Shown: positions 56,603 to 64,000, counted from the stretch's first letter. The stretch: 64,000 nt of DNA from Candidatus Hodarchaeota archaeon (GCA_048887225.1 JBHLJY010000002.1:32001-96000); one strand, 5' to 3'. Notes: a model not told the origin generated them from the letters alone. Numbers and translations are program-made.

Positions 56603-58642
56603 ATGTCAAAGGAAGAAAAAATAGCAACTGTTCTTACTGAAGATCGGAAATTTGATCCTTTAGAATTGAATCCGGATTTTTCCAAGACAGGAATAACCTT
56701 TGAAGAATATAAAAAACTCTGGAAACGGAGTGTTGAAGATTTGGAGGGTTTTTGGGGAGAACAGGCACAATCATTAGATTGGTTTGAGCCTTATGAAAAA
56801 GTCTGGGAGAGAACAGAGAATGACTTATTCCCAGGCAGGTGGTTTATCGGAGGTAAATTGAATGCAAGTTATAACTGCATTGATAGACATATTAAAGCAG
56901 GAAAAGGGGATAAACTTGCTATAATATGGGAAGCAGATGAGCCTTGGCAGGGAAGGACGTTTACATTTAAAGAGCTTAAAAGTGAAGTGTGTAAAGTTGC
57001 TAATGGAATGAAAAAGCTTGGGTTGAAGAAAGGAGATCGAGTTACTATATGGCTTCCAATGGTGCCCGAATTAGCGATTATAATGCTCGCCTGCGCTCGA
57101 CTTGGCGTTATTCATTCTATTGTGTTCGGAGGGTTTTCGAAAGAAGCTGTAAAAGATAGAATAGGCGATTCTAACTCTAAACTTTTATTTACCAGCGATG
57201 AAACGGCCAGAGCTGGAAAAACCTATCCAAAAATGGCTGATGTTGCTCAGATTATTGATGATGTTCCAACCATAGAACACGTAATTGTAGTTAAGCGAAC
57301 TGGAAATGAGGTACCGCATACTGACAAGGACATTTGGTACCACGAGCTTATTGAAGGGATGAGCGAAGAGTGTGAGCCTGAGGTAATGGACTCTGAGGAT
57401 ACCTTGTTCATTCTCTATACAAGCGGCACGACGGGAAAGCCGAAAGGCGTTAAGCATACCACTGCGGGGTATCTTCTTTATACGTCTTTTTCACATAGAG
57501 TCGTGTTTAATTATCAAGAGAAAGATATCTGGTTTTGCACCGCTGATGTAGGCTGGATTACGGGGCATAGCTATATTGTTTATGGACCATTGGCTAATGG
57601 TGCCACGACAGTAATGTTTGAGGGTGTGCCCACTTATCCCGATGTTGATAGGTTCTGGGATATGGTTGAAACCTATAAGATTACTCACTTTTATACTGCT
57701 CCAACCGCAATACGATCATTAATGCGATATGGCGATAGACCTGTTCTTAGGCATGATCTGAGCTCATTAAAGGCATTAGGGACTGTGGGAGAACCGATTA
57801 GCTATGGGAGAACCTCATAGTTCGGGAATAATCCCGAAGCCTGGACTTGGTATCATAGAGTGGTTGGAAAAGAAAGATGCCCGATTATAGACACCTACTG
57901 GCAAAAAATACGAGCATTTAGCTAGTATTTGCTAACAGAAACGGGCGGATTTCTTTTAACCCCTATAGCAACCGCAACGCCTACAAAACCCGGATCCTGC
58001 TGCCTCCCATTCTTTGGGATTAATCCAGTAATTTTTGATATAGAAGGAGATGAAGTAACTGATCCGGAGGAGGGGGGATATCTCTCAATCGGACCTAATC
58101 CATGGCCTGGAATTCTCAGAGATGTATGGGGCGATACAGAGCGATTCAAAAGAACTTATTTGGAGAAATATAAAGGTTACTATTATACAGATGATGGTGC
58201 ACGACGAGATGAGGACGGCTATTACTGGATTCTTGGTAGATTAGATGATGTAATTAAAGTTTCGGGTCATAGAATCGGCACCATGGAAGTGGAATCCGCA
58301 ATAGTGAGCCATCCAAAAGTAGCTGAAGCTGCTGTTGCTCCATTTCCACATGATATTAAAGGACAGGCAATTTGGGCTTTTATTACATTAATGGAAGGGG
58401 TAAAAAAAACCGTTGAGCTAAAACGTGACATCAAAATGCATGTAAGAAAAGAAATCGGTCCCGTTTTCCAACCAGACGTGGTTCAATTTGCGGATTCCTT
58501 GCCTAAAACGAGGAGCGGTAAAATTATGCGTAGAATATTAAAAGCGATTGCTTCAGGTACAGATATTGGAGACGTTACTACGCTCGCTGACCCTTCTGTT
58601 GTAGACGCTTTATTAGAAGAAAGAAAGAAAATAGAGACATAA
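56603..58642 (+). CDS. acs: AMP-forming acetyl-CoA synthetase, predicted spliced from three exons (56603-57798, 57829-57905, 57936-58642; 659 aa)
   Basis: [59 protein letters not shown]; all three segments are in one frame, separated by two 30-nt inserts each containing an in-frame TAG. Confidence 0.93.
57799..57828 (+). other. Putative 30-nt relaxed bulge-helix-bulge/loop intron 1 in acs
   Basis: tagctatgggagaacctcatagttcgggaa; 9-bp intron stem 57800-57808/57814-57822, central helix ccg/cgg plus an A.G mismatch, bulges at^t and aa^t; removal gives CCG ATT AAT CCC (PINP). Confidence 0.7.
57906..57935 (+). other. Putative 30-nt canonical bulge-helix-bulge intron 2 in acs
   Basis: aaatacgagcatttagctagtatttgctaa; central helix ggca(57900-03)/tgct(57930-33), bulges aa^a and aa^c, intron stem aatac/gtatt, exon pairs ct/ag; removal gives TGG CAA ACA GAA (WQTE). 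Confidence 0.82.
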
Positions 58643-58725
58643 AAATTAGGGAAATTTATTTTATTTATAAAAATTCAAATTTTTTTTTCATTACCAAATT
58701 GAATTTCAATATAGTATTATAAAAT

Positions 58726-58836
58726 ATTGACAATTAAGTATTTAACATTTTTGTTAAAAGGTGATTTAGAAAGAAACTCAAGAAATTCTCTATTTAGTTC
58801 AAGATATAAGAGAGAAATGAAAAAAAAGAAGAATTT
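58726..58836. repeat. Intergenic module copy A (lacks left end)
   Basis: attgacaattaagtatttaacatttttgttaaaagg...atttagttcaagatataaga(58792-58811)gagaaatgaaaaaaaagaagaattt. Confidence 0.9.
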
Positions 58837-58860
58837 GAATTATAATTTTTTAGCGTTCTT

Positions 58861-59250
58861 CTATTCTAATTGCTTATAATAAACATAAACATTGAGTATT
58901 ATTAGTACGATAATTACAATCAGACCAACCCACGCTCTTACTAAATCTGCTGGGGTCCAAGGCATATAAATAAAGGAACCAATGAGCAAAATAAGAACCA
59001 GAATGAACCATAATATACCTACCTCCCAAGCCGGTTTTAGAGTCTCCAATTCCCCTCTTTTTAAACCAATTAGAAGACCAATTATTAATACTACCATAGT
59101 ACCACCATAAACCCGTATGAGATATGGGTTATAATAGGGTGTACCTGCGGCTATAATGTCTGGTAGTACCAAGTATTGAATCGCATATATAATACCAGCA
59201 ATCATGTTGATAATTGCGACAATTTTCACTTCTTTTGAGATTTCTGTCAT
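58861..59250 (-). CDS. Four-TM membrane protein, family A paralog 1
   Basis: MTEISK..IINMIAGIIY..RVYGGT..WEVGILW; similar to 63313-63720. Confidence 0.8.
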   Translation of the reverse strand: MTEISKEVKIVAIINMIAGIIYAIQYLVLPDIIAAGTPYYNPYLIRVYGGTMVVLIIGLLIGLKRGELETLKPAWEVGILWFILVLILLIGSFIYMPWTPADLVRAWVGLIVIIVLIILNVYVYYKQLE

Positions 59251-59305
59251 TTAATTTCTCATCTCTTAATTTTTTATTTTTTTTTTAATCAAATTCAAAT
59301 TTTTT

Positions 59306-59448
59306 TTATTAGATATCTCACCCATAAATTTGGATTAAGTAATAAATTGATAAATAAGTATTTAAAGATTTAACATTTTTGTAATAGGCGATTCAGAAAG
59401 AAAATCAAGAAATTATTTATTTAGTTCAAGATATAAGATTCTCTAAGG
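59306..59448. repeat. Intergenic module copy B
   Basis: ttattagatatctcacccataaatttggattaag...atttagttcaagatataaga(59419-59438)ttctctaag. Confidence 0.9.
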
Positions 59449-59532
59449 TTACCTATTCAAAAAAGCCAAATTTCAAACGATATTAAAAAAAAATGATTTA
59501 ATATTATAGAATTAAATCTTTTAAATAATGTA

Positions 59533-59826
59533 TTACATTCCTAATATGCTCATGGAATCTTTAACTCCCATTAAAACTTCGATTTTAATTTCGAATCCTT
59601 CAATCTCGATAAATGGAGCAAAATTTTTATATATATAAAGTAATGCATCATCCCCTTTTCCTTTTTCACAGAATATAAGTTGATAATTCTTAATACCTTG
59701 TGTTCCACTCGAAGTGGTGAATATTTGCCATTTTTTAATGAAATCTGGTAAATCCATTCTTTTAAACTTTTTTGCTGCTTCCATTGCTTTATGAGAGGGA
59801 TATGTTACAGTCACCATAAAAATCAT
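59533..59826 (-). CDS. Small alpha/beta protein, family B paralog 1
   Basis: MVTVTYP..EAAKKF...GKGDDA...IEGFEIKIEV; GGTGA RBS-like site upstream; similar to 62768-63094. Confidence 0.8.
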   Translation of the reverse strand: MIFMVTVTYPSHKAMEAAKKFKRMDLPDFIKKWQIFTTSSGTQGIKNYQLIFCEKGKGDDALLYIYKNFAPFIEIEGFEIKIEVLMGVKDSMSILGM

Positions 59827-59872
59827 TCATAGATCACCCTTTTTTAATTTTTTAATATTAGATTTTTATTTT

Positions 59873-60007
59873 TTATTAGATATTTCACCCATAAATTTGG
59901 ATTAAGTAAAAAATTGACAATTAAGTATTTAACATTTTTGTTAAAAAGCGATTTAGAAAGAAACTTAAGAAATTATCTATTTAGTTCAAGATATAAGATT
60001 CTCTAAG
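59873..60007. repeat. Intergenic module copy C
   Basis: ttattagatatttcacccataaatttggattaag...atttagttcaagatataaga(59979-59998)ttctctaag. Confidence 0.9.
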
Positions 60008-60092
60008 TCCTAACTATTTTCAAAAAAACGAGATAGTTATTTATATTTGACTATCACAATTAGAATTAAAAATAAATTTAATTAACAAGGTT

Positions 60093-61502
60093 TTGAAGAT
60101 GTTAAAAAAAAATATAATATTTAGTCTGATACTATTTTCTACCCTCATAACAACAAGCTTGCTATGTGCTCTTGCTCCAGAAACCGCTCCAAATCTTAGC
60201 AATCAGAGCGATAATACCTTAAATGCGATATCTCGTCCAAAGTCAAGCGCAGCGAAAGTTACGGAAAAGTGGTATAATGATGACGCTCCAATTGATATAA
60301 AACAAGTTGTAATCTCTGCCGATGGGAAGTATATTGCGGCATCGTATGTATCTTCCAGGAATGTGACGCTATTTCACAGGGATAGTAATTCATCTATATG
60401 GGAATTTGAAGCGGCCGCTAATATTGATGAAATTGCAATATCATGGAATGGATCTTATATCGTCGCATGCGATGATACTAATGTCTATTTATTGAATAGT
60501 ACTGCAGAAAATCCAAAAACAACGATGTGGAATTTTACTTATATCAGTAACAGAGATTATTCTGTAGATATTTCTTTGGATGGAAGGTATATTGCAGTCG
60601 GAATTGCAGAAGATGGGATGGGTGTATATTTATTGAATAATTCCTATTCTTCTCAAAACAAAAAAGAAGTATGGCACCAAGTTTATTCTGGTCCAACGCC
60701 TCATCCAAATCATGTAACAATCTCGGGGGATGGTAACTATACTGTAATTGGGGGCAATGGTAATCCGTGGGTTGATGTATATAACGAAACAAAAATCAAT
60801 CCAAAACCAAGAGAATGGAGATATGATACGACAGCAGCGATCCAGGATGTTGAGATATCACATTCGGGAGATTATTTCATTGCAGCTAATAATGACTGGG
60901 AGGTATATTTATTTAATACGACAGATTATCTAGGAATTCCGGTGTGGAACTTCACTGAAACGGCGGGTTTCAAGGGTATGGCGATATCTGCCGATGGAAA
61001 CTATAGCGTTGTAGCGTTTGGAAAATCCGTTTATTATTTCAATAATACATTCTCTGGTGTAAATTCGCAAAAGCAGCCGCATTGGGTGTTTAACACAGAT
61101 ACTACGGTCAGAGATCTGGATATTTCGGGAGATGGCAAATATGTTGTGGTCGCAACACAGAGCATGGGTACTCTTTATCTCCTGAATGATATAAAGATAA
61201 CACCAAAAACAGAAATATGGAAGGGATATGAAGACGATAAGGTTAACGATGTTTCAATTAGTGGATTTGGAGATTATTTCGCAGCAGGAATGAACTTACC
61301 AGGTCACGATCGAATTAGCTTATTTCATCATGATATATCAATACCAAGTATACCTCCTGGACTTCTCCCGGGGGACGATGATGACGATGACGATGAAGAA
61401 GCTATAATTCCATTCGGAAATTATTATCTTCTATTTGCGCTTCTTGCTATGCTCTCTTTAATTGTAATTATGAAGCGAAAAGCAATTTTTAAAGAGTTAT
61501 AA
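60093..61502 (+). CDS. Secreted beta-propeller (WD40-like) surface protein with poly-Asp linker and C-terminal IPFG-TM-basic anchor
   Basis: Signal peptide; seven (V/M)xISxDGxY repeats preceded by W; DDDDDDDEE; IPFGNYYLLFALLAMLSLIVIMKRK. Confidence 0.85.
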   Translation: MKMLKKNIIFSLILFSTLITTSLLCALAPETAPNLSNQSDNTLNAISRPKSSAAKVTEKWYNDDAPIDIKQVVISADGKYIAASYVSSRNVTLFHRDSNSSIWEFEAAANIDEIAISWNGSYIVACDDTNVYLLNSTAENPKTTMWNFTYISNRDYSVDISLDGRYIAVGIAEDGMGVYLLNNSYSSQNKKEVWHQVYSGPTPHPNHVTISGDGNYTVIGGNGNPWVDVYNETKINPKPREWRYDTTAAIQDVEISHSGDYFIAANNDWEVYLFNTTDYLGIPVWNFTETAGFKGMAISADGNYSVVAFGKSVYYFNNTFSGVNSQKQPHWVFNTDTTVRDLDISGDGKYVVVATQSMGTLYLLNDIKITPKTEIWKGYEDDKVNDVSISGFGDYFAAGMNLPGHDRISLFHHDISIPSIPPGLLPGDDDDDDDEEAIIPFGNYYLLFALLAMLSLIVIMKRKAIFKEL

Positions 61503-61684
61503 TATTACTTTTTTTCTTTTTATTTAGTTTGTGATTTATTATTAAAACTAAAAAATTAGATAGAAGGGTAAAAATAGTCTTAAAGAACAAAATGTAACAA
61601 TATCAATTACATATAATTATTATTGTATAGAGTAAAAATTATAATTATTTTTTTATCCTGAATATAATGAGAATTTTTTAGAGT

Positions 61685-62089
61685 TTACTTATTTTTTTGT
61701 TTTGAATTTGAAGGTCCTAAAGTGGTAGATGCAACTGTTGTATTATTTTGTAAATTTCTTATATAATCTGGCACTTGATAATTCTTAAATCTCTTTAAGG
61801 TATCATTGATATCATCTAACTTCCACAATAAATTCCGTTCAAATTCATTTAATTTCTCTACAAGGCTATTTTTATCATTACCAATTAGATTTTCGGCAGA
61901 TCTTTTCCAGGATTCTTTCTCTAAGATTTTTTTTAGTTTCTCAGTATTTCTTTTTTCTTTTGGTTTTTGTAAATGCTTTCTAATTCTATATTTCTTAATT
62001 CCATCAAAAAGATATTTGATACCTGCGATTGAAATTATAATTGTAAATATTAAACCAATAATTTCAAAAATTAATTGAATTTGGTCCAT
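61685..62089 (-). CDS. Single N-terminal TM hypothetical protein
   Basis: Hydrophobic residues 5-25 followed by a charged helical tail. Confidence 0.5.
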   Translation of the reverse strand: MDQIQLIFEIIGLIFTIIISIAGIKYLFDGIKKYRIRKHLQKPKEKRNTEKLKKILEKESWKRSAENLIGNDKNSLVEKLNEFERNLLWKLDDINDTLKRFKNYQVPDYIRNLQNNTTVASTTLGPSNSKQKNK

Positions 62090-62287
62090 ATTATTTATAT
62101 TCTTTTTTAATTATTTTAAAGTCAATAGGATTCAGGTTTACTAATTTTTTCTATGTAATAGTCATTTAACTCGTTGTTTGTTAAGCTCTTAGCTTCAAAT
62201 TAGAATTTAATAACATTTTTATAATTAGTATCTTAGATTTAAGAATATACTATTAAAAAGTTTTGATAAAAATTTGGAGTTGATTCT

Positions 62288-62539
62288 GTGGGAGGATTTA
62301 TGGTATTTAATTTGACTAAGAGGAAATTGATTTCTATGGTTTTTGCATTCGGTGTTGTAATTGTTATTTGGATTATCTTATATTTTATGGGTTGTAGTAT
62401 TGGTACTAATATGATTAATCCAGCGACATTCATTGATGCTCTAATAAGTTTTATTATTCTCTTAGTGATTTATATCGTTGTTTATTGTTTCTTTTATTAC
62501 GTGATTTTTAGGAAAGTAGAGAAAACCGCTGTTGTGTAA
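62288..62539 (+). CDS. Small two-TM membrane protein
   Basis: Two hydrophobic helices; GGAGG precedes the ATG at 62300, which may be the true start. Confidence 0.6.
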   Translation: MGGFMVFNLTKRKLISMVFAFGVVIVIWIILYFMGCSIGTNMINPATFIDALISFIILLVIYIVVYCFFYYVIFRKVEKTAVV

Positions 62540-62672
62540 GCGAAAGTTTTATTAATATTTTATTTAATTTTTTTTCTTTTTATTATTCTTTGGATAAAAA
62601 GTAGATTATTATATCAATAAAACCAAGAGTCAGGCATCTGTATCTTAAAGATCTTTTTTTGAAAATGATACT

Positions 62673-62732
62673 AAATTATCTATTTAGTTCAAGATATAAG
62701 AGAGAAATGAAAAAAAAGAAGAATTTAAAATT
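62673..62732. repeat. Intergenic module copy D (right part only)
   Basis: aaattatctatttagttcaagatataagagagaaatgaaaaaaaagaagaatttaaaatt. Confidence 0.88.
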
Positions 62733-62767
62733 ATTATTCAAATTAGGATTTTATATTTTAGTGTTTA

Positions 62768-63094
62768 TTAAAACTCTGGAGCCTTCATCCCCAGCATTCC
62801 CATGGCTTCTACTACACTATACCAAACTTCTATTTTATATTTAAATCCTTCGATGTCATGGTACATCACCATGGATTCCTGAAGACGTACCATAAATTCG
62901 TCCATTTTTCCTGGTTTCGGTTCTGTTATTCCCATGGTTGTAATACCATCTTCTTTTGATCTTATGGCGCCCTGAAATATTTGTTTTTCTAGAGTTTTAT
63001 CGACCGGATATTTTTTCACAACTTCAAGATATATTTTTGCAACCTCTCTAGATTTATTAGCTGGAAAGGTTGACGTTACCATTACATAAGGCAT
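62768..63094 (-). CDS. Small alpha/beta protein, family B paralog 2
   Basis: MPYVMVTSTFP..EVAKIY...PGKMDE...IEGFKYKIEVWYSVVEAMGMLGMKAP; GAGGTG RBS precedes the ATG at 63094. Confidence 0.82.
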   Translation of the reverse strand: MPYVMVTSTFPANKSREVAKIYLEVVKKYPVDKTLEKQIFQGAIRSKEDGITTMGITEPKPGKMDEFMVRLQESMVMYHDIEGFKYKIEVWYSVVEAMGMLGMKAPEF

Positions 63095-63132
63095 GTTATC
63101 CACCTCTAATTTTTATTTTATTTTTAATTGGA

Positions 63133-63288
63133 TTATTAGATATTTCAACCATAAATTTATGGATTAAGAAAAAAATTGACAATTAAGTATTTAACATTTT
63201 TGTTAAAAGGTGATTTAGAATAAAAATCAAGAAATTATCTATTTAGTTCAAGATATAAGATAGAAATGAGAAAAAAAAAATTGAATTA
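63133..63288. repeat. Intergenic module copy E
   Basis: ttattagatatttcaaccataaat...atttagttcaagatataaga(63241-63260)tagaaatga. Confidence 0.9.
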
Positions 63289-63312
63289 AGTTTTTTAGAT
63301 TTTTTTTCTACT

Positions 63313-63720
63313 CTACTTTCCCTCTTGCAAGTAGAAATAGATATCAACAATGATTAGCACTATAACTACTACATTATCAAACCATTGGCTTGCTAGATTG
63401 ACTGCTGAACGGGGTACACTGATCGTCATTATTAAATTTATTATAAGCACTATTATGAGCCATACGATCGCAAATTCCCAAAATATTTTTGAACTCTCCC
63501 ATTCTGCTCTCATTATCATAATCACGGCAAAGATTCCAAGAGCTATAGCAGTTCCCCCAAAAATCCGCCACATATGTGGATCAAAATGAGGCGAATCATT
63601 TAAAGTAGCAATAATCTCTGGAATAACCAAATACATAAATCCATATATAAAAGCTGCGATTACATTGATTATTATAACAATTTTCATATTTTTTGATATT
63701 TCTGCCATTGAATTTATCAT
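63313..63720 (-). CDS. Four-TM membrane protein, family A paralog 2
   Basis: MAEISK..IINVIAAFIY..RIFGGT..WEFAIVW; start may be the ATG at 63708. Confidence 0.8.
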   Translation of the reverse strand: MINSMAEISKNMKIVIIINVIAAFIYGFMYLVIPEIIATLNDSPHFDPHMWRIFGGTAIALGIFAVIMIMRAEWESSKIFWEFAIVWLIIVLIINLIMTISVPRSAVNLASQWFDNVVVIVLIIVDIYFYLQEGK

Positions 63721-63754
63721 CTCTTATCTTTTTATATATATCAGATCTATTTTT

Positions 63755-63922
63755 TTATTAGATATTTCACCCCATAAAGTTATGGAGTAAGTAATAAATT
63801 GACAAATTAGTATTTAAATATTCTACATTTTTGTAATAGGCAATTTAGAAAGAAAATCAAGAAATTATGGATTTAGTTCAAGATATAAGATAGAAATGAA
63901 AAAAAAGAAGAATTTAAAATTT
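63755..63922. repeat. Intergenic module copy F
   Basis: ttattagatatttcaccccataaag...atttagttcaagatataaga(63871-63890)tagaaatgaaaaaaaagaagaattt. Confidence 0.9.
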
Positions 63923-63949
63923 TAAACTTTTCATACGAAGATATTGCTA

Positions 63950-64000
63950 TTAAGGTGCTTTTAGTCCTACGAAAGGCATGGCTTCAGCTAAATCATAAGC
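63950..64000 (-). CDS. 3' end of a third family B paralog (truncated by window edge)
   Basis: Minus strand reads AYDLAEAMPFVGLKAP*, matching WYSVVEAMGMLGMKAP of 62768-63094. Confidence 0.7.
   Translation of the reverse strand, partial: AYDLAEAMPFVGLKAP

Follow-up and report, generated by a model that had tools for sequence, protein, structure and literature searches.

At one end of a 64,000-nucleotide (nt) stretch of the genome of a Candidatus Hodarchaeota archaeon (GCA_048887225.1, JBHLJY010000002.1:32001-96000; this whole stretch is called the window below), small genes on the minus strand are punctuated by a repeated intergenic module built around a 20-nt core, ATTTAGTTCAAGATATAAGA. In our labels the window is G000:C2:32001-96000, where G000 is the genome (3.27 Mb in 49 contigs) and C2 the contig. 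The core is present in six exact copies, starting at 58792, 59419, 59979, 62682, 63241 and 63871. Chance would give 0.03 copies in the window and none of 100 shuffles reached six, while tolerating up to three mismatches brought in no additional copy there. A repeat search returned the same six sites as a single 110-nt family (61–93% identity to the reference, ungapped), and an alignment with MAFFT can be followed over up to ~200 nt, with common blocks visible.

What lies between the cores? Read along the minus strand, which carries all module copies and all A and B genes, the order begins with B3 (3' end), A2 and B2 and, past three unrelated genes, ends with B1 and A1, where A and B are two families of small proteins; all five genes of these two arrays are flanked by a core on either side. 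The upper array enters the window with the 3' end of the family B gene B3 (63950–64000), whose remainder lies outside, as far as G000:C2:96270; a seventh module, its core degenerate, stands in front of the gene there. It is followed by module copy F (63718–63931, core 63871–63890; nhmmer E 6e-44), which has a run of T residues (T-run), core, control region, TATA word and leader, and by gene A2 (63313–63720), encoding a family A protein of 131–135 amino acids (aa) with four transmembrane segments and a weak match to DUF4345, below the cut-off. Copy E (63093–63302, core 63241–63260; E 4.1e-42) has a T-run, a control region, a single TATA word and a leader with a 14-nt palindrome. Behind it lies gene B2 (62768–63103; 108–111 aa, family B), whose product was modelled with a ferredoxin-like alpha+beta fold at a predicted local distance difference test score (pLDDT) of 90.2. 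Copy D (62673–62729; positions 15–71 of the profile model) consists of a T-run terminator tract and the core (62682–62701) only, and closes the upper array with no promoter part behind it. The lower array opens with copy C (59832–60043, core 59979–59998; E 5e-45), which has part of a different left arm (L2), a control region, TATA word and leader and stands back to back with a beta-propeller gene on the plus strand (60093–61502). Next come gene B1 (59533–59826; 97 aa, family B, a small soluble protein without a Pfam match), copy B (59273–59482, core 59419–59438; E 3.9e-40) with the L2 arm, a control region, a doubled TATA word and a leader, and gene A1 (58861–59250; 129 aa, a small family A membrane protein with four transmembrane segments, also without a Pfam match). 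Copy A (58649–58850, or C2:90649-90850; core 58792–58811; E 1.5e-39) ends the array and consists of core, upstream control region and TATA-like word behind a T-run terminator tract; it has neither a leader nor a gene behind it and runs towards the acs 3' end.

Copies B, C, E and F are thus the full ones, comprising upstream region, TATA-like word and leader, and in them the parts follow one another in a set order: left arm, core, a well-kept stretch of ~45 nt, TATA-like word, leader, purine-rich site and start codon. The left arm is a T-run immediately 5' of the core in copies A, D, E and F, and the conserved L2 arm takes its place in B and C. A sequence-only reading of the window had pointed to the six 20-mers, to T-rich tracts in these same four copies, to an alternation of two gene families on the minus strand, to proteins that have diverged more than the module and to the absence of an integrase from the window. 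The observation is confirmed as a whole: the 20-mers are exact matches at the positions given, the T-runs were found by alignment, and the alternation is borne out by gene order and protein comparison. Protein identity is 43% between A1 and A2 and 33% between B1 and B2, against a DNA identity of 83–92% between the module copies and copy B, and contig C2 yielded no tyrosine recombinase match.

Anatomy of the module and the genes behind it

How widespread is the module? Within two mismatches the core occurs 37 times in the genome (19 exact copies, 13 with one mismatch and five with two), and a reversed-core control gave none at the same tolerance. A profile built from five window copies and searched with nhmmer across the genome found 34 module matches, clustered on contigs C2, C4, C6, C7, C28 and C1. 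Those on C2 span 90–113 kb, so the arrays of the window run on past its end. The match extends to the leader in 22 of the 34, and 21 of these 22 have a downstream open reading frame (ORF) that starts between 39 nt before and 93 nt after the module end. The 21 genes comprise two of family A, five of a family A', seven of family B, one other small protein and six unrelated ones: a flavin adenine dinucleotide (FAD) amine-oxidase-like oxidoreductase, a methyltransferase, a GNAT protein, a DUF998 protein, a 132-aa membrane protein and a helix-turn-helix (HTH) protein. Partial modules also precede an Fe-alcohol dehydrogenase and a zinc-ribbon protein. Conversely, three of the five family A genes and one of the eight family B genes of the genome have no module, so that family and module are separable. 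A and A' proteins are distant relatives (24–25% identical), both small and with four transmembrane segments. The predicted fold of family A, for which A2 was taken, has DUF4345/DoxX-like neighbours; family B belongs to no Pfam family and gave weak PDB matches of the ferredoxin-like (ABM/Dabb-type) fold (TM-score 0.48–0.57). No function was obtained from the folds of either family.

Eighteen modules of the genome could be aligned, with a mean pairwise identity of 79%, and in all 18 the TATA word stands 65–73 nt from the core start. The box like a B recognition element (BRE) and TATA element reads TTTAAATAC. Genome-wide, the word TTTAAATA is enriched 30–100 nt upstream of 2316 long ORFs (37–51 occurrences per 20-nt bin versus 11–17 farther upstream). 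The T-runs lie 35–60 nt past the stop codon of the preceding same-strand gene, whichever gene that is. Between small ORFs a terminator-like and a promoter-like part form a single short motif that recurs. The words TCTTGA and CTAAAT of the core recur downstream in a looser form, the first of them 21 nt from its counterpart in our reading of the alignment, and together with the core this repeat looks like a pair of binding sites.

Is the leader an RNA element? Rfam gave no match over 58000–64000 at E up to 1, RNAalifold found no consensus pairs among the 18 copies, and the folds of single leaders are weak (−0.4 to −11.4 kcal/mol). The 14-nt palindrome was accordingly set aside as an RNA hairpin and is treated as a possible DNA site. 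The leader-start segments (59340–59363, 59900–59923, 63150–63173 and 63760–63785, minus strand) contain an ATG within the palindrome. The mini-ORF that begins there (MGEISNKK...) was rejected as a leader peptide, as its second codon varies at bases 1 and 2 and one copy is frameshifted. MGEISNKK does resemble the starts of family A proteins (MAEISKN.., MTEISKE..); the module could end in what remains of an A-gene beginning, or AT-rich DNA could have produced the resemblance by chance.

Origin and spread

Where did the module come from? Orthologues of family B in five sister genomes have upstream regions with the same order of parts (BRE/TATA, hairpin-like leader, GAGGTGA) in a different sequence, from which we take the module to be a diverged ancestral upstream region and not a foreign insert. 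The search across this and related genomes that accompanied the sequence-only reading as a suggestion was run, and gave 32 cores with at most one mismatch in G000 against 0–3 in 40 related genomes, five of which hold one to three. Module DNA matches 42 places in G000 and 2–5 places in four of nine same-genus genomes, and the equivalent upstream region of the 10-contig sister genome G001 occurs there in two copies. Among the genomes of 185,579 species the exact core was met in six stretches, two from the same genus and four single and chance-like; viral contigs contained no exact core and no relative of B2. The multiplication of the module is special to this lineage.

Does the module travel with the gene behind it? 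Of 11 same-genus orthologues of module-linked genes (five of the FAD oxidoreductase, one of the GNAT protein, five of the HTH gene) none has the module upstream, and the HTH orthologues in sister genomes sit directly behind an upstream gene. Neither core nor module was found at eight B2 orthologues on metagenome contigs, where conservation around the gene is limited to ~30 nt in front and ~45 nt behind, and other genes are its neighbours. We had considered these contigs as close strains, which is ruled out by their neighbouring proteins, only 27–71% identical to G000 proteins; they show that gene and module are separable and offer no measure of neutral divergence. One copy event left a trace of its extent. 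The module of the HTH gene (G000:C1:342075-342719) is preceded by a remnant of an A' gene, namely its last 23 codons (69 nt coding) and its T-run, with 90% DNA identity over 93 nt to another A' locus, so this event began inside a gene.

The relationships among modules are reticulate. In a tree of 22 modules one of the 19 inner branches is well supported, there is no grouping by downstream gene, and a module copy from the related genome G002 nests among those of G000. The closest pairs precede unrelated genes on different contigs: identity is 85.7% over 175 nt between an A' module on C2 and the DUF998 module on C7, and 85.5% over 159 nt between the FAD oxidoreductase module and that of the 132-aa membrane protein. 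An A' module and the HTH module share 86.2% over 130 nt. In the four-gamete test 116 of 351 informative-site pairs fail, and the incompatibility of neighbouring sites is 0.267 versus 0.331 in permutations, a value reached by 2.9% of 5000. Blocks shared by G002 and G000 are 94–96% identical, and in both contigs compared synteny stops 100–900 nt from a module, with different genes beyond.

Some further observations concern this comparison. At G002:C74:9600-10000, the edge of a block syntenic with G000:C7, a module of opposite orientation stands before a small ORF that is absent there in G000, and the G000 counterpart of the site has a left arm and core only. The 6.3-kb stretch G002:C87:1-6297 is a mosaic of G000 pieces from C1, C6 (two places), C28 and C2 with joints near G000 core sites, which is either a real rearrangement or a chimeric assembly. 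As the contigs end at or near the repeats, the comparison with G002 does no more than suggest genome plasticity. Contigs from a sequencing run were short and broken at modules, and their joints had short sides that probably derive from other module copies; the raw-read run placed 25 reads, which is almost no coverage.

Could all of this be plain inheritance? The modules would then go back to a single ancestral promoter region that was duplicated in tandem long ago; purifying selection alone would have kept the copies similar, and they would neither have been copied to new genes nor have exchanged sequence. The shared order of parts at family B orthologues in the five sister genomes would fit, as would sequences resembling the module ahead of A and A' genes in G002 and G006, and the mean identity of 79% does not speak for a very recent origin. 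But the module stands before six non-homologous genes and at none of the 11 orthologues, a gene fragment hitch-hiked with one copy, module relationships disregard gene family and location, and some genes of families A (three of five) and B (one of eight) do without it. The sequence-only reading had named plain tandem duplication as the outcome that would speak against it, and this is contradicted by a module that is far better kept than the coding sequence. We regard inheritance alone as very unlikely.

The core as a joint

A core pattern looser than those above has 45 copies in the genome (control: one), and a slightly wider one 47. The flanks of these 47 were sorted into classes, a rough classing: on the left, 20 have the T-run (L1), 13 the second conserved arm (L2), three a third conserved arm (L3) and 11 something else, and on the right the promoter part follows in 20, a run of A residues (A-run), the terminator of a convergent gene, in 12, and other sequence in 15. 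Left and right classes combine in ten ways, among them L1 with the right flank R1a (eight), L1 with the A-run (six), L2 with R1a (seven) and L3 with R1a (three). How sharp are the edges? In two of seven module pairs compared, similarity sets in at the first base of the core (position 400–401 of 401); in a third pair it starts at 401 in one member and at 399 in its partner. On the right the conserved core has a blurred edge, and homology between copies sets in at the core or to its left and runs out 128–175 nt farther on. By our reading an intact core lies behind the last gene in seven of 12 arrays or solo units. At 79% identity a neutral 20-mer would match in about one pair in 100 by our arithmetic; a core so much better kept than its surroundings must be under a constraint of its own. 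The longest exact tract shared by two modules has a median of 23 nt, and in 89 of 153 pairs its start falls inside the module's first 60 nt. Exchange within the longest stretch of identity is compatible with all this, and so, just as well, is a defined recombination site.

In its main form, the core folds only weakly together with the control region (−4.1 kcal/mol, two short stems). A variant core with an extra A and a changed tail, in ~15 copies, forms a 10-base-pair (bp) imperfect hairpin. It is found mostly right behind T-runs and often ahead of an A-run, that is, between convergent terminators; examples, all outside the window, are G000:C2:103035, C2:103630, C4:52763, C6:96653 and C28:16834, among others. 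The copy at G000:C2:103630 is inverted and, with ~95 nt of other sequence, interrupts the module of the A' gene at C2:103089-103481.

Which enzyme might act on such a joint? The genome-wide search covered three families, namely tyrosine recombinases (PF00589), Y1 transposases (PF01797) and TnpB (PF07282). It found three PF00589 matches: a XerA-like gene beside orc1 on C25, a gene on C24 within a region resembling a provirus, and a fragment lying where C7 ends, ~5.5 kb from the array on that contig. The search that the sequence-only reading had proposed, for a recombinase beyond position 64000, thus gave no tyrosine recombinase on C2. Y1 transposases and TnpB gave no match in the genome (the Y1 control was positive in six of 14 known genomes), and a scan of 64 array ORFs matched no family of recombinases or transposases. 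Module ends and flanks showed neither terminal inverted repeats nor target-site duplications.

One of the two readings offered from the sequence was a gene-cassette system. Units of core, promoter, ORF, terminator and core would be moved at the cores by a site-specific recombinase encoded away from the arrays, as in an integron without a linked integrase. Several things speak in its favour: the core joins three left-arm types and several right-arm types in numerous pairings, two of seven module pairs become similar at its first base and a third close to it, cores stand on both sides of all five array genes in the window and at the end of seven of the 12 arrays or solo units, the flanks are far less conserved than the core itself, and the arrays are co-oriented and located where synteny with G002 breaks. 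Against this, C2 is free of tyrosine recombinases and none is located next to an array, Y1 transposase, TnpB and recombinase-like array ORFs are missing from the searches described, the right edge of the core is blurred, B2 orthologues elsewhere have no module, and one copy event began in a gene and not at a core. Moreover, the main core shows no fold like that of attC, the recombination site of integrons, and each unit has a promoter-like part of its own. We consider a cassette system unlikely; cores without a following promoter keep it alive.

A second possibility is a miniature non-autonomous transposable element of the Correia or REP (repetitive extragenic palindromic) kind, with the core as its end and a promoter facing outwards. 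Expansion in a single lineage (32 cores against 0–3) is what one would expect of it, and so are copies ahead of unrelated genes, the ~15 variant cores with their imperfect hairpin, the inverted variant copy inside another module at G000:C2:103630, and a left arm and core found at offsets ~150 nt apart in one intergenic region common to G000 and G006. Yet no terminal inverted repeats or target-site duplications were seen, the right end varies (128–175 nt from the core), the searches for Y1 and TnpB transposases came back empty and viral contigs hold no copy. The copies are also tied to gene ends, with the T-run 35–60 nt past stops and promoter parts in a fixed order. Dispersal like that of a small transposable element with inverted repeats (MITE), scattered independently of genes, was the other outcome named beforehand as adverse to the sequence-only reading, and this attachment to gene ends contradicts it. 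An element of this sort seems unlikely to us.

The explanation that we favour, and think probable, is a composite cassette of terminator, operator, promoter and leader that was spread by segmental copying and ectopic recombination and that defines a lineage-specific, co-regulated set of genes. The module would be a boundary between transcription units with five parts in the direction of the genes: the oligo-T terminator of the preceding gene; a control region of ~60 nt with the invariant core first and the looser TCTTGA ... CTAAAT copy 21 nt on; the BRE/TATA-like box; a leader of ~60–90 nt with an AT-rich palindrome at its start; and a Shine-Dalgarno-like site with the start codon. A sequence-specific DNA-binding protein may bind the core and its partner site and thereby co-regulate ~20 transcription units, mostly for small proteins of the four-transmembrane and ferredoxin-like types, with a few enzymes and one HTH protein. 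As for its history, the ancestral upstream region of the small-gene families would have diverged into the module and then multiplied along three routes, by tandem duplication of module-plus-gene units, by ectopic recombination or gene conversion between modules, and by capture of modules by unrelated genes. Once repeated, modules could serve as portable homology for gene swaps between arrays, as has been proposed for the PeSL cassettes of phages discussed below. This corresponds to the other reading made from the sequence, a promoter-bearing module amplified and homogenised by recombination, which is favoured by the unrelated genes, the 11 orthologues without it, the 69-nt gene fragment and the reticulate variants.

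Several points weigh against this favoured explanation. The small number of copies in relatives may in part reflect repeats lost from fragmented assemblies. The signal of the recombination test is modest (2.9%); some incompatibilities could stem from recurrent mutation, the sequence being AT-rich. The synteny breaks with G002 adjoin contig ends, as both G002 contigs end there. A promoter role leaves unexplained the cores that close seven of the 12 arrays or solo units and those between convergent terminators, an A-run standing behind 12 of 47 cores. Finally, the sharp break at the first base of the core suits a fixed cutting and joining point as well as it suits homologous exchange.

Neighbouring genes and related systems

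Two features of the surrounding genes deserve description. The acetyl-CoA synthetase gene acs (56603–58642, plus strand) forms one frame with two 30-nt inserts (about 57799–57828 and about 57904–57933), each with a stop codon. In six same-genus genomes each site either has its insert or is cleanly without it: G000 and G001 have insert 1, which G003, G004, G006 and G009 cleanly lack, and insert 2 occurs in G000, G001, G004 and G006 but not in G003 or G009. Insert 1 can be folded into a 4-bp helix between bulges, with a compensatory pair change in G001. The inserts look like candidate mini-introns of the tRNA type (bulge-helix-bulge) in an mRNA, for which the cbf5 intron, as described in one report, is a precedent in a protein gene (PMC2738675). 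The second feature is a near-identical C-terminal membrane anchor (..KRKAIFKEL) that ends three large secreted or surface proteins: the 469-aa beta-propeller protein of the window (anchor at 61440–61502, plus strand), a 784-aa protein with a carbohydrate-binding module (G000:C2:112300-112376) and a 420-aa protein (G000:C10:49779-49850). In two of the three genes a core element lies behind the terminator.

What known systems does the module resemble? Integrons are co-oriented arrays of small diverse genes with attC sites at the joints and the array end, an integrase (IntI) and mostly promoterless cassettes; attC is an imperfect palindrome, one per cassette joint, that folds as single-stranded DNA. 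Small co-oriented genes in arrays with a repeat at every joint and at the array end are found here too. In contrast to integrons, no IntI-type recombinase lies beside the arrays (PF00589 occurs on C25, C24 and the end of C7 only), the main core has no attC-like palindrome and only the variant core a 10-bp imperfect hairpin, each module unit has a TATA-like box at a fixed place, and units do not travel with the repeat between genomes. Were the core a recombination site nonetheless, this would be a new kind of cassette system, an integron-like shuffling of small genes with their own expression signals in Asgard archaea.

REP elements, the bacterial interspersed mosaic elements (BIME) and Correia repeats are short and extragenic, lie at gene ends, are partly palindromic and in some cases carry promoters. 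The module differs from them in that the genome has no Y1 (RAYT) transposase, no terminal inverted repeats or target duplications were seen, and its polarity relative to genes is fixed. REP/BIME and Correia-type repeats are named as bacterial intergenic repeats in a study of putative mobile promoters (PMPs) by Nijveen, Matus-Garcia and van Passel (PMC3575422). PMPs are defined there by upstream identity of at least 80% over at least 50 nt at non-paralogous genes. Several module pairs reach these values, for example those with 85.7% over 175 nt and 85.5% over 159 nt. The PMP families described are mostly pairs, whereas the module family has ~20 members, a fixed anatomy of several parts and an arrangement in arrays. 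How PMPs spread is left open in that paper too.

Closer in composition are the PeSL (promoter-early stem-loop) cassettes of T4-type phages. These are short repeats of terminator and promoter between small, mostly unknown genes in variable regions, and the accounts at hand propose them as points of homologous exchange between otherwise unrelated sequences (PMC2839356, PMC4122927). As a class they are also marked by insertions, deletions and replacements that, in close relatives, stop at the cassettes, and by circles formed when adjacent cassettes exchange. The likeness, read here from sequence, is a composite terminator-plus-promoter repeat between small genes. The differences, as far as those accounts go, are several: the module resides in a cellular Asgard chromosome and PeSL in phage; the module combines a BRE/TATA-type promoter with an oligo-T terminator and PeSL a sigma-70 promoter with a stem-loop; the module is longer (~190 nt), with a long leader and an invariant 20-nt core that also occurs alone at terminators; and mini-circles as well as promoter and terminator activity are described for PeSL, whereas the module is known from its sequence. 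Within archaea, the halovirus HF2 has intergenic repeats of 29–58 bp with AT-rich promoter motifs that punctuate its genes, with activity seen in a reporter assay (PMC8707807). They share with the module an archaeal setting and a promoter, in our case a predicted one; they differ in being viral and shorter, and the abstract of that report describes no terminator part and no mosaic flanks. PeSL cassettes, PMPs and, within archaea, the HF2 repeats are thus the nearest described relatives of the module.

Why does this matter? Gene regulation and genome plasticity are almost unstudied in Asgard archaea, and the module offers a concrete architecture of putative promoter, leader and terminator. It supplies a candidate operator, the 20-nt site invariant in 19 copies, and a set of ~20 genes predicted to respond together. 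It also suggests how unrelated genes may come by expression signals already assembled, and how small membrane and small soluble proteins may multiply as families in islands. Composite regulatory cassettes have so far been described mainly for T4-type phages, and the module would be their archaeal counterpart.

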